64,000 bases of DNA, from NCBI RefSeq assembly GCF_988243305.1, contig NZ_OZ547136.1. The stretch is one strand, 5' to 3'. Position 1 is the stretch's first letter. The number at the start of each line of letters is the position of its first letter. The translations under genes and the position numbers were made by a program. This document shows positions 20,128 through 63,933 of the stretch, one piece after another. A model generated the notes under the pieces. That model worked only from the letters and a program-made list of their open reading frames with translations, did no database searches and was not told the origin of the DNA.

Positions 20128-20475
20128 ATGAAAATAGATTACGATGAAGTATTAAGTATTCTCACAACTTTTCAGGATGCTGAAACACCTTTCCTTACAC
20201 TACAGGATCTGGGCATGGCTGAGGCAGAAGGAGAGGAAAAGGATAAAAAAGTTTTTCATCTTATGCTTCTCGCTGATAATGGCTCAATTGTTAATGGTGA
20301 TATGCAGTCAGAAACACCCAAATATATTGGTTTCTTTTTCCATTCTCTGGGCGTTGGTTTCAGAAACACGCCCATTATGCTTACCCAGCAGGGGCATGAT
20401 TTAGCTAACGCCCTGAGAAAAAACCAATCCTTGAAAGAATCAAAAAGGAGTTTACAGACGCACCATTTGATCTAA
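20128..20475 (+). CDS. hypothetical protein, opposite-strand AT-rich cargo gene
   Basis: 115-aa ORF with AAAGG ribosome-binding site 8 nt upstream of ATG; only plus-strand gene inside the minus-strand phage operons. Confidence 0.55.
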   Translation: MKIDYDEVLSILTTFQDAETPFLTLQDLGMAEAEGEEKDKKVFHLMLLADNGSIVNGDMQSETPKYIGFFFHSLGVGFRNTPIMLTQQGHDLANALRKNQSLKESKRSLQTHHLI

Positions 20476-20498
20476 TTAAAGAAGTTACCAAATCAATG

Positions 20499-20807
20499 TT
20501 AACCAGGTTCGTCAAAGAACGTATTGGGATTGACTGAACAACTTAATTCAGCCAGTAATCGCAGGGCGGCGACAGCCGCCTGCTTGTCACTTCTTTTAGC
20601 TATTTCCGCAAGAGTATGCACAATCCATAACGGACTTAACGCCACGGCTGAATCCAGAATCATGTCATCCATAATAATTTCTGGCATATCCCGCTTGTCA
20701 CATTCTTTATCCATAAAAGAAACGAATTTCTCTGCATCTTCCGGTTTCATGCCTCCGGCGATAAGGATTTTGCGATATTCATAAGACGATCTTAATTCAA
20801 TACTCAT
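20499..20807 (-). CDS. hypothetical protein (AT-rich cargo block)
   Basis: 102-aa ORF with AGGTGA RBS 5 nt upstream of ATG. Confidence 0.55.
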   Translation of the reverse strand: MSIELRSSYEYRKILIAGGMKPEDAEKFVSFMDKECDKRDMPEIIMDDMILDSAVALSPLWIVHTLAEIAKRSDKQAAVAALRLLAELSCSVNPNTFFDEPG

Positions 20808-20822
20808 TATTCACCTGCCTGC

Positions 20823-21215
20823 TTAATCTGTTTCCAGTGCTTTGCTACGGGCTATAGCCTCACATTCAAAAAATACCGACTCCGGCACGCGCTCTTTTAA
20901 TTCACGAACAAGGAAATCATTAACGCGTTCATGACGTCTTATATTTCTTTCCTTTTCCTCCTGGCGCAATACAGCAAGGCGGTATTCAACAGCCCGGCGT
21001 TGTTTCTGAAAGACAGCCAGTGCTTTTCTGGCAGCATTACGCCATGCATCATCGCCACATGGTGCGTATTCAAGCTGAAATTTAATCTCTTCAATAGTTT
21101 CTTTGATTTTTGCCAGCAAGCTAAGACAGTCGCTTATTGTCTCCAGCTTTTCATTATCAATATAACTTCTCACGCATTCACCTCCCGTAATTCCGGTAAA
21201 GCCGAAATATGACAC
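20823..21215 (-). CDS. hypothetical coiled-coil protein (AT-rich cargo block)
   Basis: 130-aa ORF; start may instead be GTG overlapping upstream stop. Confidence 0.5.
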   Translation of the reverse strand: MSYFGFTGITGGECVRSYIDNEKLETISDCLSLLAKIKETIEEIKFQLEYAPCGDDAWRNAARKALAVFQKQRRAVEYRLAVLRQEEKERNIRRHERVNDFLVRELKERVPESVFFECEAIARSKALETD

Positions 21216-24903: not shown

Positions 24904-25131
24904 TTAGCTGACTTGTTTCGCACCAACAGAACGGCATATTCCGCTGTAAACTTCTGTCGCACCTTCGCGATCAAGTCCGGCAGATATCACCATTCGTGTG
25001 CGGTCATTAAATTCAAAAAGTAAATCGCCACATTCTTTATTTTCGGCCAGTGAAATCACCTTCACGTTATCGAAATTAACCAGGTAAAAGCGTCCGTAAA
25101 TATCAGGAATATTAAATACCGCCATAATCAC
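24904..25131 (-). CDS. hypothetical small protein in the Mu kil position
   Basis: 75-aa ORF immediately downstream of B; positional inference only. Confidence 0.45.
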   Translation of the reverse strand: MIMAVFNIPDIYGRFYLVNFDNVKVISLAENKECGDLLFEFNDRTRMVISAGLDREGATEVYSGICRSVGAKQVS

Positions 25132-26069
25132 ACCTGTGAGAGTAATTCAGGGTTGGTATAAACCTCTTTAAAGGCCGCATTAATATGTTTTTCTGTCAGC
25201 GCCGCGCCTTCACCGCTGGCGGTGAGCCACGCCTGGTTAAGCGTATGTGTCAGAACGCGTAACGCTCCCGGCTTTTCAGCGATAGCCTGCATGACGGCCA
25301 GCTCAGCCTCACCACTGATCCCCCACGCCATGGCAATGGCCAGCACATCCGCCTTTTTGGCCTTGCGAAGTTGTTTTGTACGGGCAAGACGGCTGAACAG
25401 GCGCGATAAATCATCAAAGGCGCGGCGTCCACCTTTAAACAATCCGCGCGGGTTACCAATAAGCACCATCCCGATCCCCGTGGCGTCCTGAATTGCCCGG
25501 AGTTGCTCCAGACCGTCAATACCAAGATGATCCGCCTCATCCACAATCACCAGTCCACGCGTTCCCATCAGGCGACGGCGGATGGCGCGGGATAATGCCC
25601 CTTTGTTCGCGCGGGTGTAATCAATCCCCAGCGCATCGGCCAGCTCCAGCAGACACTCCGTGACGCTGGAGTGCGCGGGTGACAGGGTGATCATCCAGGT
25701 GTTTGGTTGCTCCTGGCAGTAATTACGGGCAGTGGCCGTTTTACCCACACCCGGTACGCCCACAATAACGTTAATACAGCCCATCAGGCGAACCGCCTGA
25801 AACAGTGCGCGCAGCTCCTGGACTGTCTGAGTTTCCACAAACTGCGGCGGTTCCGGCAGTGCGCTTTGTTTATTCCAGTTCTCATACCAGGAGCGCAGGG
25901 AAGCAGCCACAGCAGCGTTATCGCCTTTATATTTTCCCTTACGGAAAGCCGATAATGTGCCGTCGGAAATTCCCGCCTCTCTGGCGATGGCATACTGCGT
26001 CAGTACGCCGCCATCAATAAGTTCATCAATGGTCTTGATTACATCGTTAATATCGGTCATATTATTCAC
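25128..26069 (-). CDS. transposition ATPase B (MuB-like AAA+ target DNA activator)
   Basis: 313 aa, Walker A GVPGVGKT, translation resembles Mu B. Confidence 0.9.
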   Translation of the reverse strand: MNNMTDINDVIKTIDELIDGGVLTQYAIAREAGISDGTLSAFRKGKYKGDNAAVAASLRSWYENWNKQSALPEPPQFVETQTVQELRALFQAVRLMGCINVIVGVPGVGKTATARNYCQEQPNTWMITLSPAHSSVTECLLELADALGIDYTRANKGALSRAIRRRLMGTRGLVIVDEADHLGIDGLEQLRAIQDATGIGMVLIGNPRGLFKGGRRAFDDLSRLFSRLARTKQLRKAKKADVLAIAMAWGISGEAELAVMQAIAEKPGALRVLTHTLNQAWLTASGEGAALTEKHINAAFKEVYTNPELLSQV

Positions 26070-26142: not shown

Positions 26143-28233
26143 TCAGGCCAGCGGATCACTTTCTTTTAATTTCGCTTCGAGCAACTGCAATCCCCGCTGG
26201 AAATTACGCTCGTATTCTTCATCAGGTTCATCGTCAGCGACCGGTTGCTGAACGATCACCGTATTACCCACAGGGCGGTATATATTTTCCAGCCACGGCT
26301 CCTGTGGCTTGTGCTCCAGCACGTTGACAATCTCATCCTCGGCATCACGGATTTTTTCCTCTGCGCGTTTACGCATGCCTTTAAGGCGCTGCTGCTGTTT
26401 GTGGTATTCCGCGCTGACCGGGAAGGCTTCGCGTTTATTGCCGTCCCATACCGCCTCGCAAATCACGCTGCCATCCAGGCGACGTACGGTAATTCGTTCG
26501 GCATCATGAATGTCATAGCTGATAAGCACCTTACGACCATGCTCGTCACGCAGCTCGGGCGCGTAGTAAATATTATTCAGCCAGCGTATTTCACAGCGTC
26601 TTACAGGGCGCTCCACCATCGGCCGGAACATATCCCGCAGTTCAACATCGGACAGCCATTCAATTTCCGTGTCCTCTTCCGCCAGGCGTTTTTTTCTGAA
26701 CTCCGCCGGGCTGTAATGTTTACCGTTCGGCTTCATGGGTAATTCATCGTGCGGCCGGTTGTTGTACCACTCAACACCATCACGAATGGCATCAATCAGT
26801 TCAGCCCAGGACGGTGAATCACGCATCGCTGACTGCTGCCGGGCGTTCAGCCGTTTGCCCTGTTGCAGGGCAGTAAATGCCGAGCGTAAATCGCGGTTGG
26901 TTTTGCGTAACGTCTCGCGATCTGCACCTTTCCCGAAATAGGTGCGGTATTTACGGGCTATGCGCATCGGTAATGTGCGGTTAAGCCGTTCGATAATGCC
27001 TCGTCCCTGCGGATTACCGGCAATCCCGGTCGGGTGATTAATCCCCAGTCGCGGCAGTATCCCCACAACCTCCTTATCCAGGATGTCGGCGGTTTCCCCG
27101 GAGCCGTTATCCGAGTAATACAGAAACGGTTTGCCGTGATGGCGAATGCCGTGCTGTATGGCACCGGCTACGGCGAAAACATTTTCAGCCAGGTCAAGGC
27201 TCCAGCCCACCACAAAGCGCGTGCCACCGTCGATAACAAAGGTCACTTCCGGTGCAAATGGCCGACCGTGAACCGGGTGTGCGCATTTCAGCTTCATGCC
27301 GTGACCGTCACCAATCCAGACATAATTCACCGGCATTTTTGACCAGTCGCGGCGCGTGAATCCCTCAAGCTGGCGGTATTCACTGCCGGTCACCCGGCCT
27401 TTTTGTTTCACCACTTCCGGCAGTTTCTTCATTGCGCGGCGAATGGTGTCATAAGACGGCATGATATCGAGCATATAAGGCTCATCAGCGTGCCGGTGCT
27501 GCCATTCAGCGACAAAATCCTCGTAAGCCTCGGTCATTGGTCGGCCGTTTGACTGGCGATACTGCGCCAGAAATTCGGGCAGCCAGTTAATATCTTCGGC
27601 TTTTATTTCCTGGCGCTTACCCGGTGCCAGTAAAAGCAGGCGTTCAGCGGCGTTCTGCGCCTTGTTAAAGGCCGCAATCCAGCGTTTCAGCGTGATTTCA
27701 CTTAACGCGCGGCTGTTTCCCTTTTTGGCGTTCGCCGTCTCAACCATTGCCACAATGCGCTCGTCCAGCTGCGAACGTGCCAGGTTGTCAACGATAAACC
27801 GGATAGCCTTCGCACAGCTGAAACCAGGTTGTTGCGCGACTTTCAGAACTTCGCTGACGATCGCGATTCGTGCATCAGCCACCTGGCGCTGGTTTTCAGT
27901 CAGGGCATTAAGGCGTTCGACCATCAGTTGTGGTGATCCGCGATATGCCTCCACCGCATCAACCACGGCAGGCGAGCGTCTGGCCTTTGTCACCACTGGA
28001 GCCGGTGATTCATCGACTTTTTGAGTCATCAGTTGCAGGGCGTAGCGTTCACGTAATGCCTGCTGCGTCACTTCAGGTAAACAGTCGATGCTGTATTCAG
28101 TTGCTTTAGAGCCTGAGCGACGACGGGAACAACAGCTTTTCCCTTGTACGTAACGTTGTAATGCCTGGCGAATACCTTTTGTTGTAGCAGGCATTCCGGG
28201 CGCACCAATCAGTTCTTTTGCAATGACATACAT
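26143..28233 (-). CDS. DDE transposase A (MuA-like)
   Basis: 696-aa ORF between ner and B. Confidence 0.85.
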   Translation of the reverse strand: MYVIAKELIGAPGMPATTKGIRQALQRYVQGKSCCSRRRSGSKATEYSIDCLPEVTQQALRERYALQLMTQKVDESPAPVVTKARRSPAVVDAVEAYRGSPQLMVERLNALTENQRQVADARIAIVSEVLKVAQQPGFSCAKAIRFIVDNLARSQLDERIVAMVETANAKKGNSRALSEITLKRWIAAFNKAQNAAERLLLLAPGKRQEIKAEDINWLPEFLAQYRQSNGRPMTEAYEDFVAEWQHRHADEPYMLDIMPSYDTIRRAMKKLPEVVKQKGRVTGSEYRQLEGFTRRDWSKMPVNYVWIGDGHGMKLKCAHPVHGRPFAPEVTFVIDGGTRFVVGWSLDLAENVFAVAGAIQHGIRHHGKPFLYYSDNGSGETADILDKEVVGILPRLGINHPTGIAGNPQGRGIIERLNRTLPMRIARKYRTYFGKGADRETLRKTNRDLRSAFTALQQGKRLNARQQSAMRDSPSWAELIDAIRDGVEWYNNRPHDELPMKPNGKHYSPAEFRKKRLAEEDTEIEWLSDVELRDMFRPMVERPVRRCEIRWLNNIYYAPELRDEHGRKVLISYDIHDAERITVRRLDGSVICEAVWDGNKREAFPVSAEYHKQQQRLKGMRKRAEEKIRDAEDEIVNVLEHKPQEPWLENIYRPVGNTVIVQQPVADDEPDEEYERNFQRGLQLLEAKLKESDPLA

Positions 28234-28483: not shown

Positions 28484-28650
28484 ACTTCCTCTATTCTAAA
28501 AAGTTACCCGCGCGGATATTCGTGCGGATATCTGTACGGGTAAATAATAGAACAAACAAAAGAACCAAATCAAGGTATTTTGTTCTTTTTATTCTTTGCG
28601 GTGTTTTTGTTATTAATATCAATAAGATAAATAAAAAGGAACCTGAGAGC
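28484..28650. promoter_or_regulatory. divergent promoter/operator region between ner and repressor
   Basis: Direct repeats GCGGATAT at 28512 and 28524; inverted repeat AAAAGAAC (28556-28565) / GTTCTTTT (28582-28590). Confidence 0.5.
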
Positions 28651-29235
28651 ATGAACATGAAAAACAGTTCTTTTCTCGACGAAGGAAAAGAACCAGTGAT
28701 CGAACGGATTTTTCGTCTTGCAGAGCGTTACAAATCGAGAAGTGAGGCGGCTAGAGCATGGGGAATAAACGTTCAGACATTGCAGAACTACTACAAAAGG
28801 AGAAACAATCAGCCGCCACCACAACCAAGAAAGCACCATCTCCAGAACATTGCAGAAAGAGAACATGTATCTATGGAGTGGCTGGTCAATGGTTATGGTG
28901 ATGAGCCAAGCATGAAAAAAGAACCAATTGAACAAACAAAAAGAACAAAAAAACAAAGAATTGATGATAGTGATTCCATCATCATGAGGGCGTGGGACTC
29001 GCTAACTTCATCTGAACAAGAGATTTTGTCCAACTTATTGATCAGAAAAGGGGCCGAACTACTAACCGTTTTGCTTGATACAGATATTCAAAAACTGCAC
29101 TCATTGAGCGGAGTCAAAAGAGCACTAGCATTGAGTCTACAAGAGTTACCCGATGATACTGTAAGAGAGATTTATGAAGAATGTGAAGCTAAGGTTAATC
29201 ATTTAAATGTAACCCAGAAAAAGGCTGGTGCGTAA
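28651..29235 (+). CDS. prophage repressor (Mu c position)
   Basis: 194 aa from ATG with AAGGA RBS; divergent from ner. Confidence 0.6.
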   Translation: MNMKNSSFLDEGKEPVIERIFRLAERYKSRSEAARAWGINVQTLQNYYKRRNNQPPPQPRKHHLQNIAEREHVSMEWLVNGYGDEPSMKKEPIEQTKRTKKQRIDDSDSIIMRAWDSLTSSEQEILSNLLIRKGAELLTVLLDTDIQKLHSLSGVKRALALSLQELPDDTVREIYEECEAKVNHLNVTQKKAGA

Positions 29236-29319: not shown

Positions 29320-31105
<1,786 letters not shown>

Positions 31106-31192
31106 ATTCACCCCGAATGTTGTTATGTCTGTTTGCAGTGTAGAGCCATTGTTTGTAAACACAAAAACAACTCCGCTACATCTTATTCTTAT

Positions 31193-31744
31193 TTAATATA
31201 TATCAGAAGCAGGCAGGCTGGAGGATTTCTGCACAAGTCCGGTACACGTTTGACGCTGATAGTGTTGATACTTCCGTAACGCAATGCGGTAATTGTTGGT
31301 GCTGGTGGTGGGCAGCCACGGGGCGAGGATTTCATCAAGGAAACCGTCCTGCAGCTGATCGAGGGAAATATTTTGCTCGTGTAGATGATTACCCAAACGG
31401 CGCAGACGAACGACATATTCACGCACCGTACCTGGGCTCATTTCAGTTTGTTCAAAAAGAAATTGCTTAAAGCCGATAATATCGAAAAAATCACTTTGCG
31501 TTTTGCAATGTAAATCACCGCAGAATCGGCACAATGCCGCCCATGATTTTTGTTCCACTTGCCAGCCATTTTCATCAAGCAGCATGTCCAGGCGGGAAAT
31601 CTCGATTTTATTCACTATTTTGCCGTCGCGAACGAGGGTAATGCGGTCGAGTAATTTACGGCAATGCGCGCAATGAGTCTGGCTGTGTTTAAAGTCTTTA
31701 AGATAGCGGCTTAATGGCCGTCTTTTCAGGTGCTGCACCATCAT
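31193..31744 (-). CDS. fliZ: regulator FliZ
   Basis: MMVQHLKRRPLSRYLKDF... 183 aa. Confidence 0.9.
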   Translation of the reverse strand: MMVQHLKRRPLSRYLKDFKHSQTHCAHCRKLLDRITLVRDGKIVNKIEISRLDMLLDENGWQVEQKSWAALCRFCGDLHCKTQSDFFDIIGFKQFLFEQTEMSPGTVREYVVRLRRLGNHLHEQNISLDQLQDGFLDEILAPWLPTTSTNNYRIALRKYQHYQRQTCTGLVQKSSSLPASDIY

Positions 31745-31789
31745 TAAGAACTCCTGGTAGTCAAAATTAAAGTGCGGCATTTACTGACG

Positions 31790-32509
31790 TTATAACTTAC
31801 CCAGTTTAGTGCGTAACCGTTTAATGGCCTGGCTGTGTAACTGACTGACCCGCGATTCCCCGACCTCCAGCACCGCGCCAATCTCTTTGAGATTCAGCTC
31901 TTCCTGGTAATAGAGGGTTAATACCAGTTTTTCGCGCTCCGGCAACGTTTCGATAGCTTCCATCACCCGCTGGCGCAGATTACTGTCCAGCAGCTGTTGT
32001 AGCGGGTTTTCTCGCTGATGATCATCAGTAACCAGTTCAATGCTATCGCCGTGCTCTTCGCGCCACTCATCGTAGGAGAAGAGCTGGCTGTTATTGGTGT
32101 CGAGCAACATTTGGCGATAATCGGCAATATCGATCCCTAAACGTTCCGCTACCTCAGTTTCCGTGGCGTTACGGCCAAGTTCCTGCTCCAGTTGCCCTAT
32201 TGCCTGTGCCACTTCACGCGCGTTGCGTCGCACGCTGCGCGGCACCCAGTCACGGCTGCGAAGTTCATCCAGCATAGCGCCACGTATACGCTGCACTGCG
32301 TAAGTTGTAAATGCCGTTCCTTGTAGGGCGTCATAGCGTTCGACGGCATTAAGTAACCCAATGCCGCCCGCCTGTAGCAGATCGTCAAGTTCCACGCTCG
32401 CGGGCAGTCGAACCTGCAGGCGCAATGCTTCGTGACGCACCAGCGGGACATAACGCTGCCACAGCGAGTGTTTATCCATTACACCTTCAGCGGTATAGAG
32501 TGAATTCAC
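31790..32509 (-). CDS. fliA: flagellar sigma factor sigma-28
   Basis: 239 aa. Confidence 0.95.
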   Translation of the reverse strand: MNSLYTAEGVMDKHSLWQRYVPLVRHEALRLQVRLPASVELDDLLQAGGIGLLNAVERYDALQGTAFTTYAVQRIRGAMLDELRSRDWVPRSVRRNAREVAQAIGQLEQELGRNATETEVAERLGIDIADYRQMLLDTNNSQLFSYDEWREEHGDSIELVTDDHQRENPLQQLLDSNLRQRVMEAIETLPEREKLVLTLYYQEELNLKEIGAVLEVGESRVSQLHSQAIKRLRTKLGKL

Positions 32510-32630
32510 GATAAACAGCCCTGCGTTATATGAGTTATCGGCATGATTATCCGTTTCTGCAGGGTTTTTAATCGGACGATTAGTGGGTGAAATGAGGGGT
32601 TATTTGGGGGTTACCGGTAAATTGCGGACA

Positions 32631-32657
32631 GAAAAAACCCCGCCGTTGGCGGGGTTT
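32631..32657 (-). terminator. intrinsic terminator downstream of fliC
   Basis: Hairpin ccccgcc/ggcgggg flanked by A6 and T-run. Confidence 0.75.
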
Positions 32658-32673
32658 GAGCGATAAGTGTAAA

Positions 32674-34134
32674 TTAACGCAGCAGAGACAGTACGTTCTG
32701 CGTGGTCTGGTTAGCCTGCGCCAGAACAGAGGTACCCGCTTGTTGCAGGATCTGCGCACGAGACATGTTAGACACTTCGGTCGCGTAGTCAGCATCTTCG
32801 ATACGGCTACGGGCAGAAGACAGGTTGTTTACGGTGTTGCCAAGGTTGGTGATAGCAGAGTCGAAACGGTTTTGTACTGCACCGAGGTCAGAACGCAGAT
32901 TGTCAACTTTAGCCAATGCCTTGTCGATGGTTTCGAGCGGGTTGGTAGTAGATTGCAACGATTTTGCTGCATCTTCTTTTACCAGAATCGGGCTACCACC
33001 TTCTGATTTGCTCAGATACATAGTTTTGCCAAGCCCAGTTACTGTCTTACCATCAGCGCTAACTTCATAATCAGCGCCATTTACAACTAAAGAACTACCC
33101 ACTTTTTTAGCGTTATTTAAGTCCAGATCCGATGCTGTAGCGGCTTTGTTTTCAACCTTAGTTGTAGTGAACTGACCTGCACTATTTTTGTAAACAGGAT
33201 CAGACGTTTTTAATGTTGCGTCCTTCCCTGTCGCATCAATAGTAAAGGTTACATCTTTGCCATCAATATTAGCGGTTAGAGTGCCGTTACCACTGCCATC
33301 AAATGCATCAGTGCCTTTGTTGGTGAAAGTAATACCTTGGTATTTAATTGAGGCATCTTTAGCTAAAGAAACTGCGGCTTTTGCAAGCCCAGTCGCATCA
33401 ATACCTGTACCACCGACTTTTGTATCACTCTTAGTAGTCAGAGAACCATCGGTAGCGCTAACAAAAATTGCGTCACCATCCTCATTTTGAACTGCTCCAC
33501 TATCTACATTAACAGTATAGTTATCAGTACCGTTAATTTGATAATTATCAGTACCTGTCGCTTTAAATTTAGAAATCAGGTCACTGCCAGTTGCTTTCTG
33601 CGCGCCATCGATATTAAAGCCGTCCAGGCCGAGAGTTTTCGCATCAATTTTTGCCAGATTGATAGTGATGGTTTCCCCATCATTAGCACCAACCTGAATT
33701 TTCATTTCATTATTTTCGGCAAGGACTTTCACGCCGTTAAACTGAGTTTGCTCAGATACACGGTCAATTTCTTCCAGACGTTGAGTAATTTCTGCCTGAA
33801 TAGAAGAAAGATCGCTGTCAGAGTTAGTACCGTTAGTTGCCTGAACAGTCAGTTCACGTACACGCTGCAGGTTGTTGTTAATTTCATTCAGCGCACCTTC
33901 AGTAGTCTGCGCAACAGAAATACCATCATTCGCGTTACGGGAAGCCTGAGTCAGACCTTTAATATTTGCCGTAAAACGGTTAGCAATCGCCTGACCTGCT
34001 GCGTCATCTTTAGCACTGTTAATACGCAGGCCAGAAGAGAGACGCTCAATAGCAGAGCTAAGAGAAGACTGAGATTTGTTCAGGTTATTCTGGGTCAACA
34101 GCGACAGGCTGTTTGTATTAATGACTTGTGCCAT
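32674..34134 (-). CDS. fliC: flagellin
   Basis: MAQVINTNSLSLLTQNNLNKSQ... conserved N and C termini, variable middle; 486 aa. Confidence 0.95.
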   Translation of the reverse strand: MAQVINTNSLSLLTQNNLNKSQSSLSSAIERLSSGLRINSAKDDAAGQAIANRFTANIKGLTQASRNANDGISVAQTTEGALNEINNNLQRVRELTVQATNGTNSDSDLSSIQAEITQRLEEIDRVSEQTQFNGVKVLAENNEMKIQVGANDGETITINLAKIDAKTLGLDGFNIDGAQKATGSDLISKFKATGTDNYQINGTDNYTVNVDSGAVQNEDGDAIFVSATDGSLTTKSDTKVGGTGIDATGLAKAAVSLAKDASIKYQGITFTNKGTDAFDGSGNGTLTANIDGKDVTFTIDATGKDATLKTSDPVYKNSAGQFTTTKVENKAATASDLDLNNAKKVGSSLVVNGADYEVSADGKTVTGLGKTMYLSKSEGGSPILVKEDAAKSLQSTTNPLETIDKALAKVDNLRSDLGAVQNRFDSAITNLGNTVNNLSSARSRIEDADYATEVSNMSRAQILQQAGTSVLAQANQTTQNVLSLLR

Positions 34135-34204
34135 GATCTTTTCCTTATCAATTACAACTTGATGTTATTGGGCTGTTGCCCACGGTTTCTCACCGTACCC
34201 CTTG

Positions 34205-34230
34205 TATCGGCACCTGAATTTCGAACTTTA
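34205..34230 (-). promoter_or_regulatory. sigma-28 promoter of fliC
   Basis: TAAAGTTCGAAATTCAGGTGCCGATA on minus strand. Confidence 0.8.
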
Positions 34231-34323
34231 GAAAATTTTAGTTTCTCTCCTGTTTTTTCTTAACGGCTGAAATATCCGTAATATACAACTCTACTCTGCG
34301 CATCATCTTCGTGAATCAACTAT

Positions 34324-34350
34324 TAAACTTTGCGCACAAATTGCCGATAA
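34324..34350 (+). promoter_or_regulatory. sigma-28 promoter of fliD
   Basis: TAAACTTT-N11-GCCGATAA. Confidence 0.8.
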
Positions 34351-34388
34351 CCCGCTTATCTACTGTTTGCAATCAAAAGGAATTAGGT

Positions 34389-35801
34389 ATGGCTTCATTT
34401 ACATCTCTTGGCGTTGGTTCGAATCTGCCGCTGGATACATTGCTAAACAACCTGACCATCGCTGAAAAAAAACGCTTAAACCCAATTACTCAGCAACAGA
34501 GTGACAACACCGCACGTCTGACAGCCTATGGCACATTAAAAAGTGCATTAGAAAAATTCCAGACTGCAAATACTGCGTTAAATAAAGCCGATCTGTTCAA
34601 AAGCACTACCGTTACCAGTAGCAATGAAGACCTTAAAGTTTCCACCGAAGCAGGTGCTGCCCCCGGTATCTATACCATCAGCGTAACCCAACTGGCGCAG
34701 GCGCAATCTTTACGAACTGATTCCCCGACAATCATTGCATCAACAAAAGATGCACTGGGTGATGAGTCATCAGATACACGCACAATAAAAATTACCCAAG
34801 ACGGCCGTAAAGAGCCGCTGGAAATCAAGCTCAATAAAGATCAGACGTCATTGGATGAGATCAGCAAAACCATTAACGATGCCGATAGTGGAATTTCCGC
34901 TAGTATCGTTAAAGTCAAAGATGGTGACTATCAATTGGTATTGACCGCCAGTGAAGGTCTGGCCAATAAAATGACCATATCTGTTGAGGGTGACAGTAAA
35001 TTAAATGATCTGCTGGCTTATGACAGCAAGACCAACACCGGGAATATGAAGGAACTGGTTAACGCGCAAAATGCACAGCTAAACGTTAACGGTATCGATA
35101 TTGAACGTTCAAGTAACAAAATTACCGATGCTCCTCAGGGAGTGACTCTCGATTTGACCAAAAAAGTCACTGACGTCCGGGTCACGGTGACAAAAAGCAA
35201 CGATAAAGCAACCGAAGCAATTAAAGGCTGGGTGGATTCATATAACTCCCTCATTGACACCTTTAACACCCTGACAAAATATAAAGAAGTAGACCCAGGT
35301 GCTGAAGCACAAGATAAAAATAATGGTGCACTTCTCGGAGACAGCGTTGTACGTACAATTCAAAGCGGCATCCGCGCACAATTTGCAAACGGTGCCAGCG
35401 ACGGTGCCTTCAAAACATTAAACGAGATCGGGATTAAGCAGGACGGCACGACGGGTAAGCTGAAAATTGATGATGATAAACTCAAAAAAGTCCTGAATGA
35501 AAATACAGCATCCGTACGTGAATTGCTGGTAGGCGATGGTAAAGAAACAGGAATTACCACCAAAATTGCCACCGAGGTAAAAGGTTACCTTGCCGATGAT
35601 GGCATTATTGATAGCGCACAGGACAGTATTAACGCCACACTGAAAAAACTAACCAAACAGTATCTATCCGTCAGTGCCAGCATTGATGACACCGTGGCGC
35701 GTTACACTGCACAGTTTACGCAATTAGATACCATGATGAGCAAACTGAATAACACCAGTACCTATCTCAGCCAACAATTTACTGCAATGAGTAATTCCTG
35801 A
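34389..35801 (+). CDS. fliD: flagellar filament cap protein
   Basis: MASFTSLGVGSNLPLDTLL... Confidence 0.95.
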   Translation: MASFTSLGVGSNLPLDTLLNNLTIAEKKRLNPITQQQSDNTARLTAYGTLKSALEKFQTANTALNKADLFKSTTVTSSNEDLKVSTEAGAAPGIYTISVTQLAQAQSLRTDSPTIIASTKDALGDESSDTRTIKITQDGRKEPLEIKLNKDQTSLDEISKTINDADSGISASIVKVKDGDYQLVLTASEGLANKMTISVEGDSKLNDLLAYDSKTNTGNMKELVNAQNAQLNVNGIDIERSSNKITDAPQGVTLDLTKKVTDVRVTVTKSNDKATEAIKGWVDSYNSLIDTFNTLTKYKEVDPGAEAQDKNNGALLGDSVVRTIQSGIRAQFANGASDGAFKTLNEIGIKQDGTTGKLKIDDDKLKKVLNENTASVRELLVGDGKETGITTKIATEVKGYLADDGIIDSAQDSINATLKKLTKQYLSVSASIDDTVARYTAQFTQLDTMMSKLNNTSTYLSQQFTAMSNS

Positions 35802-35815
35802 TCACGGAGGTCAGC

Positions 35816-36226
35816 ATGTATACCGCGAGCGGCTCAAAAGCCTATGCACAAATTGGCGTCGAAAGCGCCGTAATGAGCGCCAGCCAGCAGCAGCTGGTCA
35901 CCATGCTATTTGATGGAGTGCTGAGCGCACTGGTTAGAGCGCGCCTGTTTATGCAGGACAACAATCAGCAAGGCAAAGGCGTCTCTTTGTCAAAAGCGAT
36001 CAACATCATTGAGAACGGACTGCGGGTGAGTCTTGATGAAGAGAGCAAAGACGAATTAACCCAAAACTTGATTGCTCTTTATAGCTATATGGTCAGGCGC
36101 TTGCTGCAAGCCAATTTACGCAACGATGTCTCCGCAGTCGAAGAAGTGGAAGCATTAATGCGTAATATTGCCGATGCCTGGAAAGAGTCGTTACTCTCCC
36201 CTTCTTTGATTCAGGACCCAGTCTGA
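35816..36226 (+). CDS. fliS: flagellin chaperone
   Basis: 136 aa. Confidence 0.95.
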
Positions 36227-36591
36227 TGAACCATGCACCGCATTTGTATTTCGCCTGGCAACAACTCGTCGAAAAAAGCCAGCTCATGTTACGCCTGGCA
36301 ACGGAAGAACAATGGGAAGAACTCATCGCCAGCGAAATGGCGTATGTGAATGCGGTGCAGGAGATTGCACATCTGACTGAAGAGATTGACCCGTCCACCA
36401 CGATGCAGGAGCAGCTCCGCCCGATGCTGCGCCTGATTCTCGACAACGAAAGCAAGGTAAAGCAGTTATTACAGATTCGGATGGATGAACTGGCGAAACT
36501 GGTCGGTCAGTCATCGGTGCAAAAATCGGTGTTAAGTGCCTATGGCGATCAGGGCGGCTTTGTGCTGGCTCCGCAGGATAACCTCTTTTGA
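36226..36591 (+). CDS. fliT: flagellar export chaperone / anti-FlhDC factor
   Basis: 121 aa. Confidence 0.9.
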
Positions 36592-62180: not shown

Positions 62181-62745
62181 ATTGGATGAGCCAGTCAAGA
62201 CTCAATCATTTTTTGAACAAATAGATAAATTTTGCGCAACGGCAATAATTACTGGAAAAACAGCAATAAAGATTTATTTATATCCTTGGTAATAGTTTTA
62301 TTAATTCACCCAAACAATATATTAGCACTGAATACAATTATACCTTTTTTGATTTCTGTGTCATGATAACCCCGTTATTAGCCTTTTATCGTCTTGTTTA
62401 TATTTTTTGGGCCGGCATGATGCCGGCTTTTTTTATACCTTCATTAATGTGCGCGTGATCACGCCTGCCGTTTGGCGCAACAATCATTGATACTCCCTAT
62501 CTTTCCATTCAACTCATAACATATTGATATACATTTATAATTTTCATGAATGTTTATATTTAGAATTCATAATTCTGAATTATATTAAATAGATTAGAAA
62601 CATTTTGAAATCTTTTAAATACATTTGTTACATGTAATCCTTAAAATAAAATGAACTTCATAGAATAGTATCCAAATGTGCTTTTTTTTGGATAACGGCA
62701 CTTATTGATATATTCATGAAGATTATAATCACAAGGGAATACATA

Positions 62746-63933
62746 ATGAAAAGAAAAGTTCTGGCAATGCTGGTCCCGGCGTTATTAGTTGCTGGCGCAG
62801 CAAATGCGGCTGAAGTCTATAATAAAGATGGTAATAAACTGGATTTGTACGGAAAAGTAGCGGGCCTGCACTACTTCTCTGATGATGCTGGCAGCGATGG
62901 CGACATGTCATATGCCCGTATCGGTTTCAAAGGTGAAACTCAGATCGCTGACCAATTCACTGGTTATGGTCAGTGGGAATTTAACATTGGCGCAAACGGT
63001 CCTGAAAGCGACAAAGGTAATACCGCAACGCGTCTGGCATTTGCAGGTTTAGGCTTTGGTCAGAATGGTACTTTCGACTATGGTCGTAACTACGGTGTCG
63101 TATATGACATCGAAGCATGGACCGATATGCTGCCAGAATTTGGTGGCGATACCTATGCTGGTGCCGACAACTTCATGAACGGTCGTGCTAATGGTGTTGC
63201 AACCTACCGTAACAATGGCTTCTTTGGTCAGGTCGATGGCCTGAACTTTGCTCTGCAATATCAGGGTAATAATGAAGATGATGGATTATTCGGTCAGGAA
63301 GGTTCTGGTAACGGTAATGGCCGTAAGTTAGCTAAAGAGAACGGCGACGGCTTCGGTATGTCCACTTCCTATGACTTTGACTTTGGTTTAAGTCTGGGCG
63401 CTGCTTACTCTAACTCTGACCGTACCGACAATCAGGTTCACAAAGGTACTCATAACACTCGTTATGGAGATCGCTTCGATGCAACTGCTGGCGGTGAAAC
63501 AGCAGAAGCATGGACCGTTGGTGCTAAATACGACGCTAATAACGTTTACTTAGCAGCTATGTATGCTGAAACCCGTAACATGACTGGTTACGGTGATGCT
63601 GATGCGATCGCTAACAAAACCCAAAACTTTGAAGTTGTTGCTCAGTATCAGTTCGACTTCGGTCTGCGCCCGTCCATCGCTTACCTGCAATCTAAAGGTA
63701 AGGATTTAGGCGGTGTAAATAGTGATAACTTCGACAGCCAGGGCAATCATCATTACACCAACAAAGATCTGGTTAAATATGTTGATATTGGTATGACCTA
63801 CTACTTCAACAAAAACATTTCCACCTACGTTGATTACAAAATCAACCTGCTGGACAACGACGACGACTTCTACAAAGAAAACGGCATCGCTACCGATGAT
63901 ATCGTAGCTGTGGGCTTAGTCTACCAGTTCTAA
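62746..63933 (+). CDS. yedS: outer membrane porin, OmpC/OmpF/PhoE family (yedS position), intact
   Basis: Signal peptide [21 protein letters not shown] then [17 protein letters not shown]..., C-terminal ...VGLVYQF; AT-rich upstream region. Confidence 0.8.

Follow-up and report, generated by a model that had tools for sequence, protein, structure and literature searches.

Identification and genetic setting of the flagellin gene

Which H antigen does the flagellin gene of this Escherichia coli locus encode, and which part of the protein carries the type? Both questions were addressed in a 64,000-nucleotide stretch of contig NZ_OZ547136.1 (assembly GCF_988243305.1), analysed as a whole and hereafter called the window. 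The gene, at 32674..34134 on the minus strand, is a single ORF of 486 aa plus stop, free of frameshifts and premature stops. Its product matches RefSeq WP_000079825.1 exactly and lacks Cys, His and Trp altogether. Pfam analysis detected Flagellin_N (PF00669) at residues 5-142 (E=1.6e-45; 155 bits, cut-off 26.6), Flagellin_C (PF00700) at residues 400-485 (E=1.2e-31; 109 bits, cut-off 23) and the FliC-like_3rd beta-sheet domain (PF22370) at residues 288-384. The protein passed the NCBIfam FliC/FljB subfamily model NF005294 with 533.5 bits (cut-off 387), and scored 592.8 with the longer model NF005953, slightly below its cut-off of 619.

The gene lies at the standard E. coli site in flagellar region III, and the gene order fliD / fliC-fliA-fliZ-tcyJ is that of both K-12 MG1655 and the O128:H27 strain 90-9281. 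On one side of fliC, and on the same strand, are fliA, fliZ, tcyJ and dcyD; on the other, divergently transcribed, are fliD, fliS, fliT and amyA. Directly downstream of fliC is an intact fliA (31790..32509, minus strand), encoding the 239-aa sigma-28 factor (363 bits with NCBIfam NF005413, whose cut-off is 201). The filament cap gene fliD (34389..35801, plus strand, 470 aa) was identified by Pfam FliD_N and FliD_C and by the NCBIfam FliD equivalog model at 662 bits, and is followed by intact genes for the flagellin export chaperone FliS (136 aa) and for FliT (121 aa), which together occupy 35816..36591 on the plus strand and both exceed the cut-offs of their models (NCBIfam TIGR00208 and NF007836). 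From fliF to fliR, the ORFs have the sizes expected from K-12 throughout, as does fliZ.

Upstream of fliC, the sequence reads as a putative sigma-28 (FliA) class-3-type promoter, TAAAGTTC-N11-GCCGATAC, at 34204..34230 on the minus strand. The sigma-28 promoter consensus is TAAAGTTT-N11-GCCGATAA; the motif is near this consensus and would serve as the promoter of fliC. Its mirror image is a putative sigma-28-type promoter of fliD at 34324..34350 on the plus strand, TAAACTTT-N11-GCCGATAA, proposed from its match to the consensus. A terminator scan predicted an intrinsic hairpin for fliC at 32635..32657 (minus strand), 17 nt past the stop codon, with a 10-bp stem containing 7 GC pairs followed by the T-run TTTTCTG; the hairpin is also kept in the K-12 and O111:H8 loci. 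A sigma-70 promoter scan near fliC gave 3 sites, against 3.4 expected in shuffled sequence, and since this count is no higher than that of shuffled sequence the sites were disregarded. An Rfam scan of positions 31000-36000 at E up to 0.1 gave no matches, and so no catalogued RNA was found in or around fliC. Given its ORF, domains, neighbours, sigma-28-type promoter and terminator, fliC is therefore intact and fully equipped.

Elsewhere in the window, downstream of dcm/yedJ, an intact gene for an OmpC-family porin of 405 aa was observed at 62716-63933 on the plus strand (Pfam Porin_1, E=1e-141), with a stretch of 36% GC ahead of it. The K-12 counterpart of this site is presumably the porin pseudogene yedS.

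Assignment of the allele to H27

To assign the H type, the whole of fliC was compared by megablast with 5,426 complete E. coli genomes. Identity of at least 95% was found in 37 of these, corresponding to an allele frequency of ~0.7%, and 20 genomes were 100% identical over all 1461 bp. The exact matches include a record entitled 'Escherichia coli O128:H27 strain 90-9281' and the strains JE86-ST02 and JE86-ST05, which are Stx-producing EAEC of serotype O86:H27, their H type having been taken from the fliC sequence (PMC7366661). A further exact match is strain E7476, isolated from human stool in South Africa; by isolate name and South African origin it matches the ETEC strain E7476A, which is given as O166:H27 from South Africa, citing McConnell 1989 (PMC5149512). 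The exact FliC protein is recorded on at least 1000 contigs in public data.

Comparison of the central 663 bp of fliC revealed a clear separation from other types. Identity of at least 95% was found in 33 genomes, followed by a gap: the band from 80 to 90% holds one record, and among the matches listed the sole entry in this band is a 172-bp partial alignment at 89.5% (H100). The next full-length central match is the L004 type, which includes NCTC9041, at 75.3%, followed by H8-labelled (73.7%), H21-labelled (72.4%) and H11-labelled (70.9%) alleles. Over the whole of fliC, the next-best full-length allele is 88.6% identical. We take NCTC9041 to be the O41:H40 reference strain, and the L004 allele is hence probably H40. 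Identity to the fliC of H27 strains, together with the gap to other H types, therefore identifies the allele as H27, and the gene in the window is almost certainly the chromosomal E. coli fliC carrying the H27 flagellin allele. H27 itself is defined by serology, and the assignment made here is genotypic.

Four complete genomes carry a sub-variant of H27 (L003, NZ_CP146667.1) with a fliC of 1473 bp that is 98.8% identical to that of the window. It differs by an ASSA insertion after residue 296 and by the substitutions D276G, K309T, K386N and T396A.

Three other readings of the gene were weighed. The strain could be H27 by sequence and yet non-motile (H-), with a defect elsewhere in the regulon, so that the antigen is not displayed. 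The presence of fliC is no proof of expression, because all JE86 O86 isolates with the identical gene are non-motile (PMC7366661), and the window covers flagellar region III only, flhDC, flg, flh and mot/che lying outside it. Within the window, however, fliA, fliC, fliD, fliS and fliT are intact by family models, the fliZ and fliF-fliR ORFs are of K-12 size, promoter and terminator motifs are present, and the Mu-like prophage described below hits dcyD and no flagellar gene. On this evidence we consider an H- strain unlikely, though it is a possibility to be reckoned with.

Far less probable is that we are dealing with some other, rare H type whose sequence nearly coincides with that of H27, in which case the H27 labels could not be carried over from the matching genomes to this strain. 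A few residues can separate H types, as with H1 and H12, which are serologically distinct yet 97.5% identical (PMC4753304), and the ASSA sub-variant with its four substitutions is present in four genomes. Against this, fliC is 100% identical across three independently labelled H27 backgrounds (O128, O86 and O166), one of which had already been so described in a 1989 reference. It is just as hard to credit that a second, non-fliC flagellin locus of the flkA, fllA, flmA or flnA type sets the antigen while the H27 fliC is silent or phase-variable: such loci are reportedly (Wang and colleagues in 2003, and related work) responsible for a minority of the H types of E. coli, namely H3, H17, H35, H36, H44, H47, H53, H54 and H55, but tblastn of FliC against the whole 64-kb window found no second flagellin or further flagellin-like sequence, and H27 is fliC-encoded in the matched strains.

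Extent of the variable region and the H27-specific core

With the allele assigned to H27, its divergence was mapped along the protein. Comparison with the K-12 FliC (H48, 498 aa) revealed an identity of 90% over residues 1-61, 84% over residues 62-173, 22% over residues 174-396 and 71% over residues 397-486. These values bear out the preliminary description, in which the N- and C-terminal regions were taken to be conserved and the centre to be distinct from K-12 flagellin. The conserved N-terminal part (residues 1-173; 33616..34134, minus strand) is 86% identical to K-12 FliC and 98-100% identical to the H8, H11 and H21 flagellins, and from its alignment to Salmonella FliC would form the D0/D1 helices and a beta-hairpin. 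The conserved C-terminal part (residues 397-486; 32677..32946, minus strand), which contains Flagellin_C and is assigned to the D1/D0 helices, is 100% identical to H8, H11 and H21. Between them, the region that is variable relative to K-12 comprises residues 174-396 (32947..33615, minus strand) and probably corresponds to the D2/D3 surface domains that determine the H antigen.

The divergent part relative to K-12 thus amounts to ~223 aa and not to the central ~330 residues first proposed. Of the span 32950-33950 given for it (residues 62-396, ~334 aa), the lower boundary holds and the upper does not: the upper third (33616-33950, residues 62-173) is the conserved D1 helix, with the 84% identity to K-12 noted above. 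The span nevertheless lies in fliC and contains the central, antigen-determining domain, in support of the interpretation placed on it. Its characterization as Thr/Asp/Gly-rich was correct as far as it went, residues 174-396 containing 13.0% T, 10.3% D and 11.7% G, but was incomplete, Ala, Lys and Ser being equally abundant (A 11.2%, K 9.9%, S 9.0%). The GC content of the fliC centre is 40-43%, whereas fliA, amyA and the conserved fliC end reach ~50% or above.

Comparison with the nearest other H types narrowed the region further, to an H27-specific core at residues 199-376 (33007..33540, minus strand). Over this core, FliC shares 64-71% aa identity with the H8-, H21- and H11-labelled alleles and L004, and outside it 98-100%. 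Because these nearest relatives are near-identical elsewhere, the type specificity of H27 must sit in residues 199-376. Within the variable region, Tandem Repeats Finder detected a 24-bp tandem duplication (33509..33555, minus strand; period 24, 2.0 copies, 78% matches), which encodes GTDNYQIN/GTDNYTVN.

Structure and proposed working of FliC

To place these regions in the structure, FliC was aligned with Salmonella FliC (9gnz/1ucu), giving a single continuous alignment with E=2.7e-126, and it also aligned over its full length to solved E. coli flagellins. Because the Salmonella alignment runs end to end and the proteins are of near-equal length, the layout of a D0/D1 core with D2/D3 at the surface applies. 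An AlphaFold2 model built from a 7-sequence alignment has a mean pLDDT of 60; residues 181-370 are beta-rich with pLDDT of 72-89, and D0/D1 lie below 50. Domain boundaries were taken from the Salmonella FliC alignment, since D0/D1 are poor in the model. A Foldseek search of the PDB with the model returned flagellins only. The model does not place the domains reliably relative to one another, which kept the TM-scores low, and the search was used solely to confirm the fold class. In the conserved N-terminal part, the segment LQRVRELTVQ aligns with LQRVRELAVQ in Salmonella D1, a segment which we take to be part of the TLR5-recognised surface.

A working scheme for FliC can be drawn from the filament structures of Salmonella and E. 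coli and from the TLR5-flagellin complex. In this scheme, FliC would be made late in flagellar assembly from a FliA-dependent promoter. Binding of FliS to its C-terminal helices would keep it unfolded for export through the flagellar type III apparatus, and polymerisation would follow beneath the FliD cap, both filament formation and export being proposed from homology to the solved structures. The partners FliA, FliS and FliD are all intact in the window. The conserved helices (residues 1-173 and 397-486; D0/D1) would form the filament core and the TLR5-recognised surface, and residues 174-396 would fold as beta-rich D2/D3 domains on the filament exterior, the likely target of H antisera. The information separating H27 from H40-like, H8, H21 and H11 would be located in residues 199-376.

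Mosaic structure of the locus

The divergence from K-12 extends beyond fliC. Across the block 32655-35839, containing fliC and fliD, blastn against K-12 gave patchy matches of 72-86%, in contrast to the flanks, which are 98.0-98.7% identical. By this sequence comparison, the filament and cap genes vary as one cassette relative to K-12. The fliD gene is identical to that of the O128:H27 locus. Alignment with strain 90-9281 (L001) revealed no mismatches from 32172 to ~37000 and two up to 40500, whereas 29500-32171 and 41000-42000 each diverge by ~2%. The pattern points to breakpoints of recombination within fliA and close to yedK/fliE; homologous recombination carrying the H27 segment from one lineage to another would be expected to leave such a mosaic. 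Variation of the fliC-fliD cassette and mosaicism of this kind are known phenomena.

The spacer between fliC and fliA (32510-32673) is 164 nt long, compared with 320 nt in K-12. Missing here and in the O111:H8 locus are 156 nt that in K-12 contain two REP elements; what remains in common with the K-12 spacer is limited to the terminator hairpin and the fliA promoter region. The K-12 REP segment makes up most of the sigma-28-dependent sRNA FliX/FliX-S (PMC10578931), and FliX represses flagellin and ribosomal-protein mRNAs. One could speculate that the fliC-fliD cassette brings its own short 3'UTR, so that more than an antigen is exchanged, an idea that we regard as improbable. Should the missing segment contain the FliX seed, FliX regulation would be lost in strains of the H27/H8/H11/H21 allele group, and exchange of H type would then also rewire post-transcriptional flagellar control. 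Specialists may already be aware of this variation in the 3'UTR.

A Mu-like prophage interrupting dcyD

A Mu-like transposable prophage of 55-60% GC occupies positions 1-29496, with a junction at 29496/29497 and its other end beyond the window start. It encodes homologues of MuA (26143-28233) and MuB (25128-26069), a repressor (28522-29235) and a tape-measure protein (2534-4591), and is ~92% identical to Mu-like insertions annotated inside two Stx-converting phage records. Its TG-terminal end abuts dcyD, and on the minus strand the phage end reads 5'-TGTAACCAGGTGAATC. The D-cysteine desulfhydrase gene is left as a remnant (29497-30200, minus strand), cut after ~234 of 328 codons. The prophage/dcyD junction was found in none of the 5,426 complete E. 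coli genomes. An influence of the prophage on the H antigen was considered and rejected, because it lies 2.4 kb from fliC, downstream of fliA-fliZ-tcyJ, and interrupts only dcyD.

Within the prophage, a low-GC island (~42%) was observed at 20128-21215. Of its three small ORFs (PHROGs 585, 1988 and 6158), one runs in the opposite direction, and the island may represent accessory or moron genes.

Comparison with known flagellins

The H27 fliC is an already known type, and its domain plan and recombinational spread are established, so that nothing in it is new; the understanding of flagellin biology is unchanged, and what is gained is a completed annotation. H27 is known from ETEC (O128:H27 and O166:H27) and from Stx-producing EAEC (O86:H27), and the genotype aids serotype and epidemiological labelling of the source genome.

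The closest known systems are the H27 strains themselves. In 90-9281, JE86-ST02/05 and E7476, the fliC DNA is identical over 1461 bp, and hence so is the protein, and the architecture of the locus is the same. The chromosomal background differs from that of 90-9281, the ~2% divergence starting inside fliA and again near fliE.

At the next remove are the H8, H21, H11 and L004 flagellins, which at 487-492 aa are similar in length to the 486 aa of the window. Their loci have the same 164-nt fliC-fliA spacer and the same FliD length, and they share 98-100% identity with the H27 protein over the N-terminal 198 and the C-terminal 90 residues; the central DNA, in contrast, is only 70.9-75.3% identical.

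The K-12 FliC (H48, b1923, 498 aa) shares with the H27 protein the gene, its position, the domain plan and the predicted sigma-28 regulation. It differs in sequence, the ends being 71-90% identical and the centre 22%, and fliD is strongly divergent too. Salmonella enterica FliC (PDB 1UCU, 9GNZ, 3V47) is of comparable length (494-495 aa, compared with 486 aa), but its centre is alignable with low confidence only, and its antigenic specificity differs. Over the N-terminal 175 residues, FliC of the window is roughly equally close to Salmonella and to K-12, whereas over the C-terminal 89 residues (398-486; 32677-32943) it is closer to Salmonella (79/89 identical, 89%) than to K-12 (63/89, 71%).
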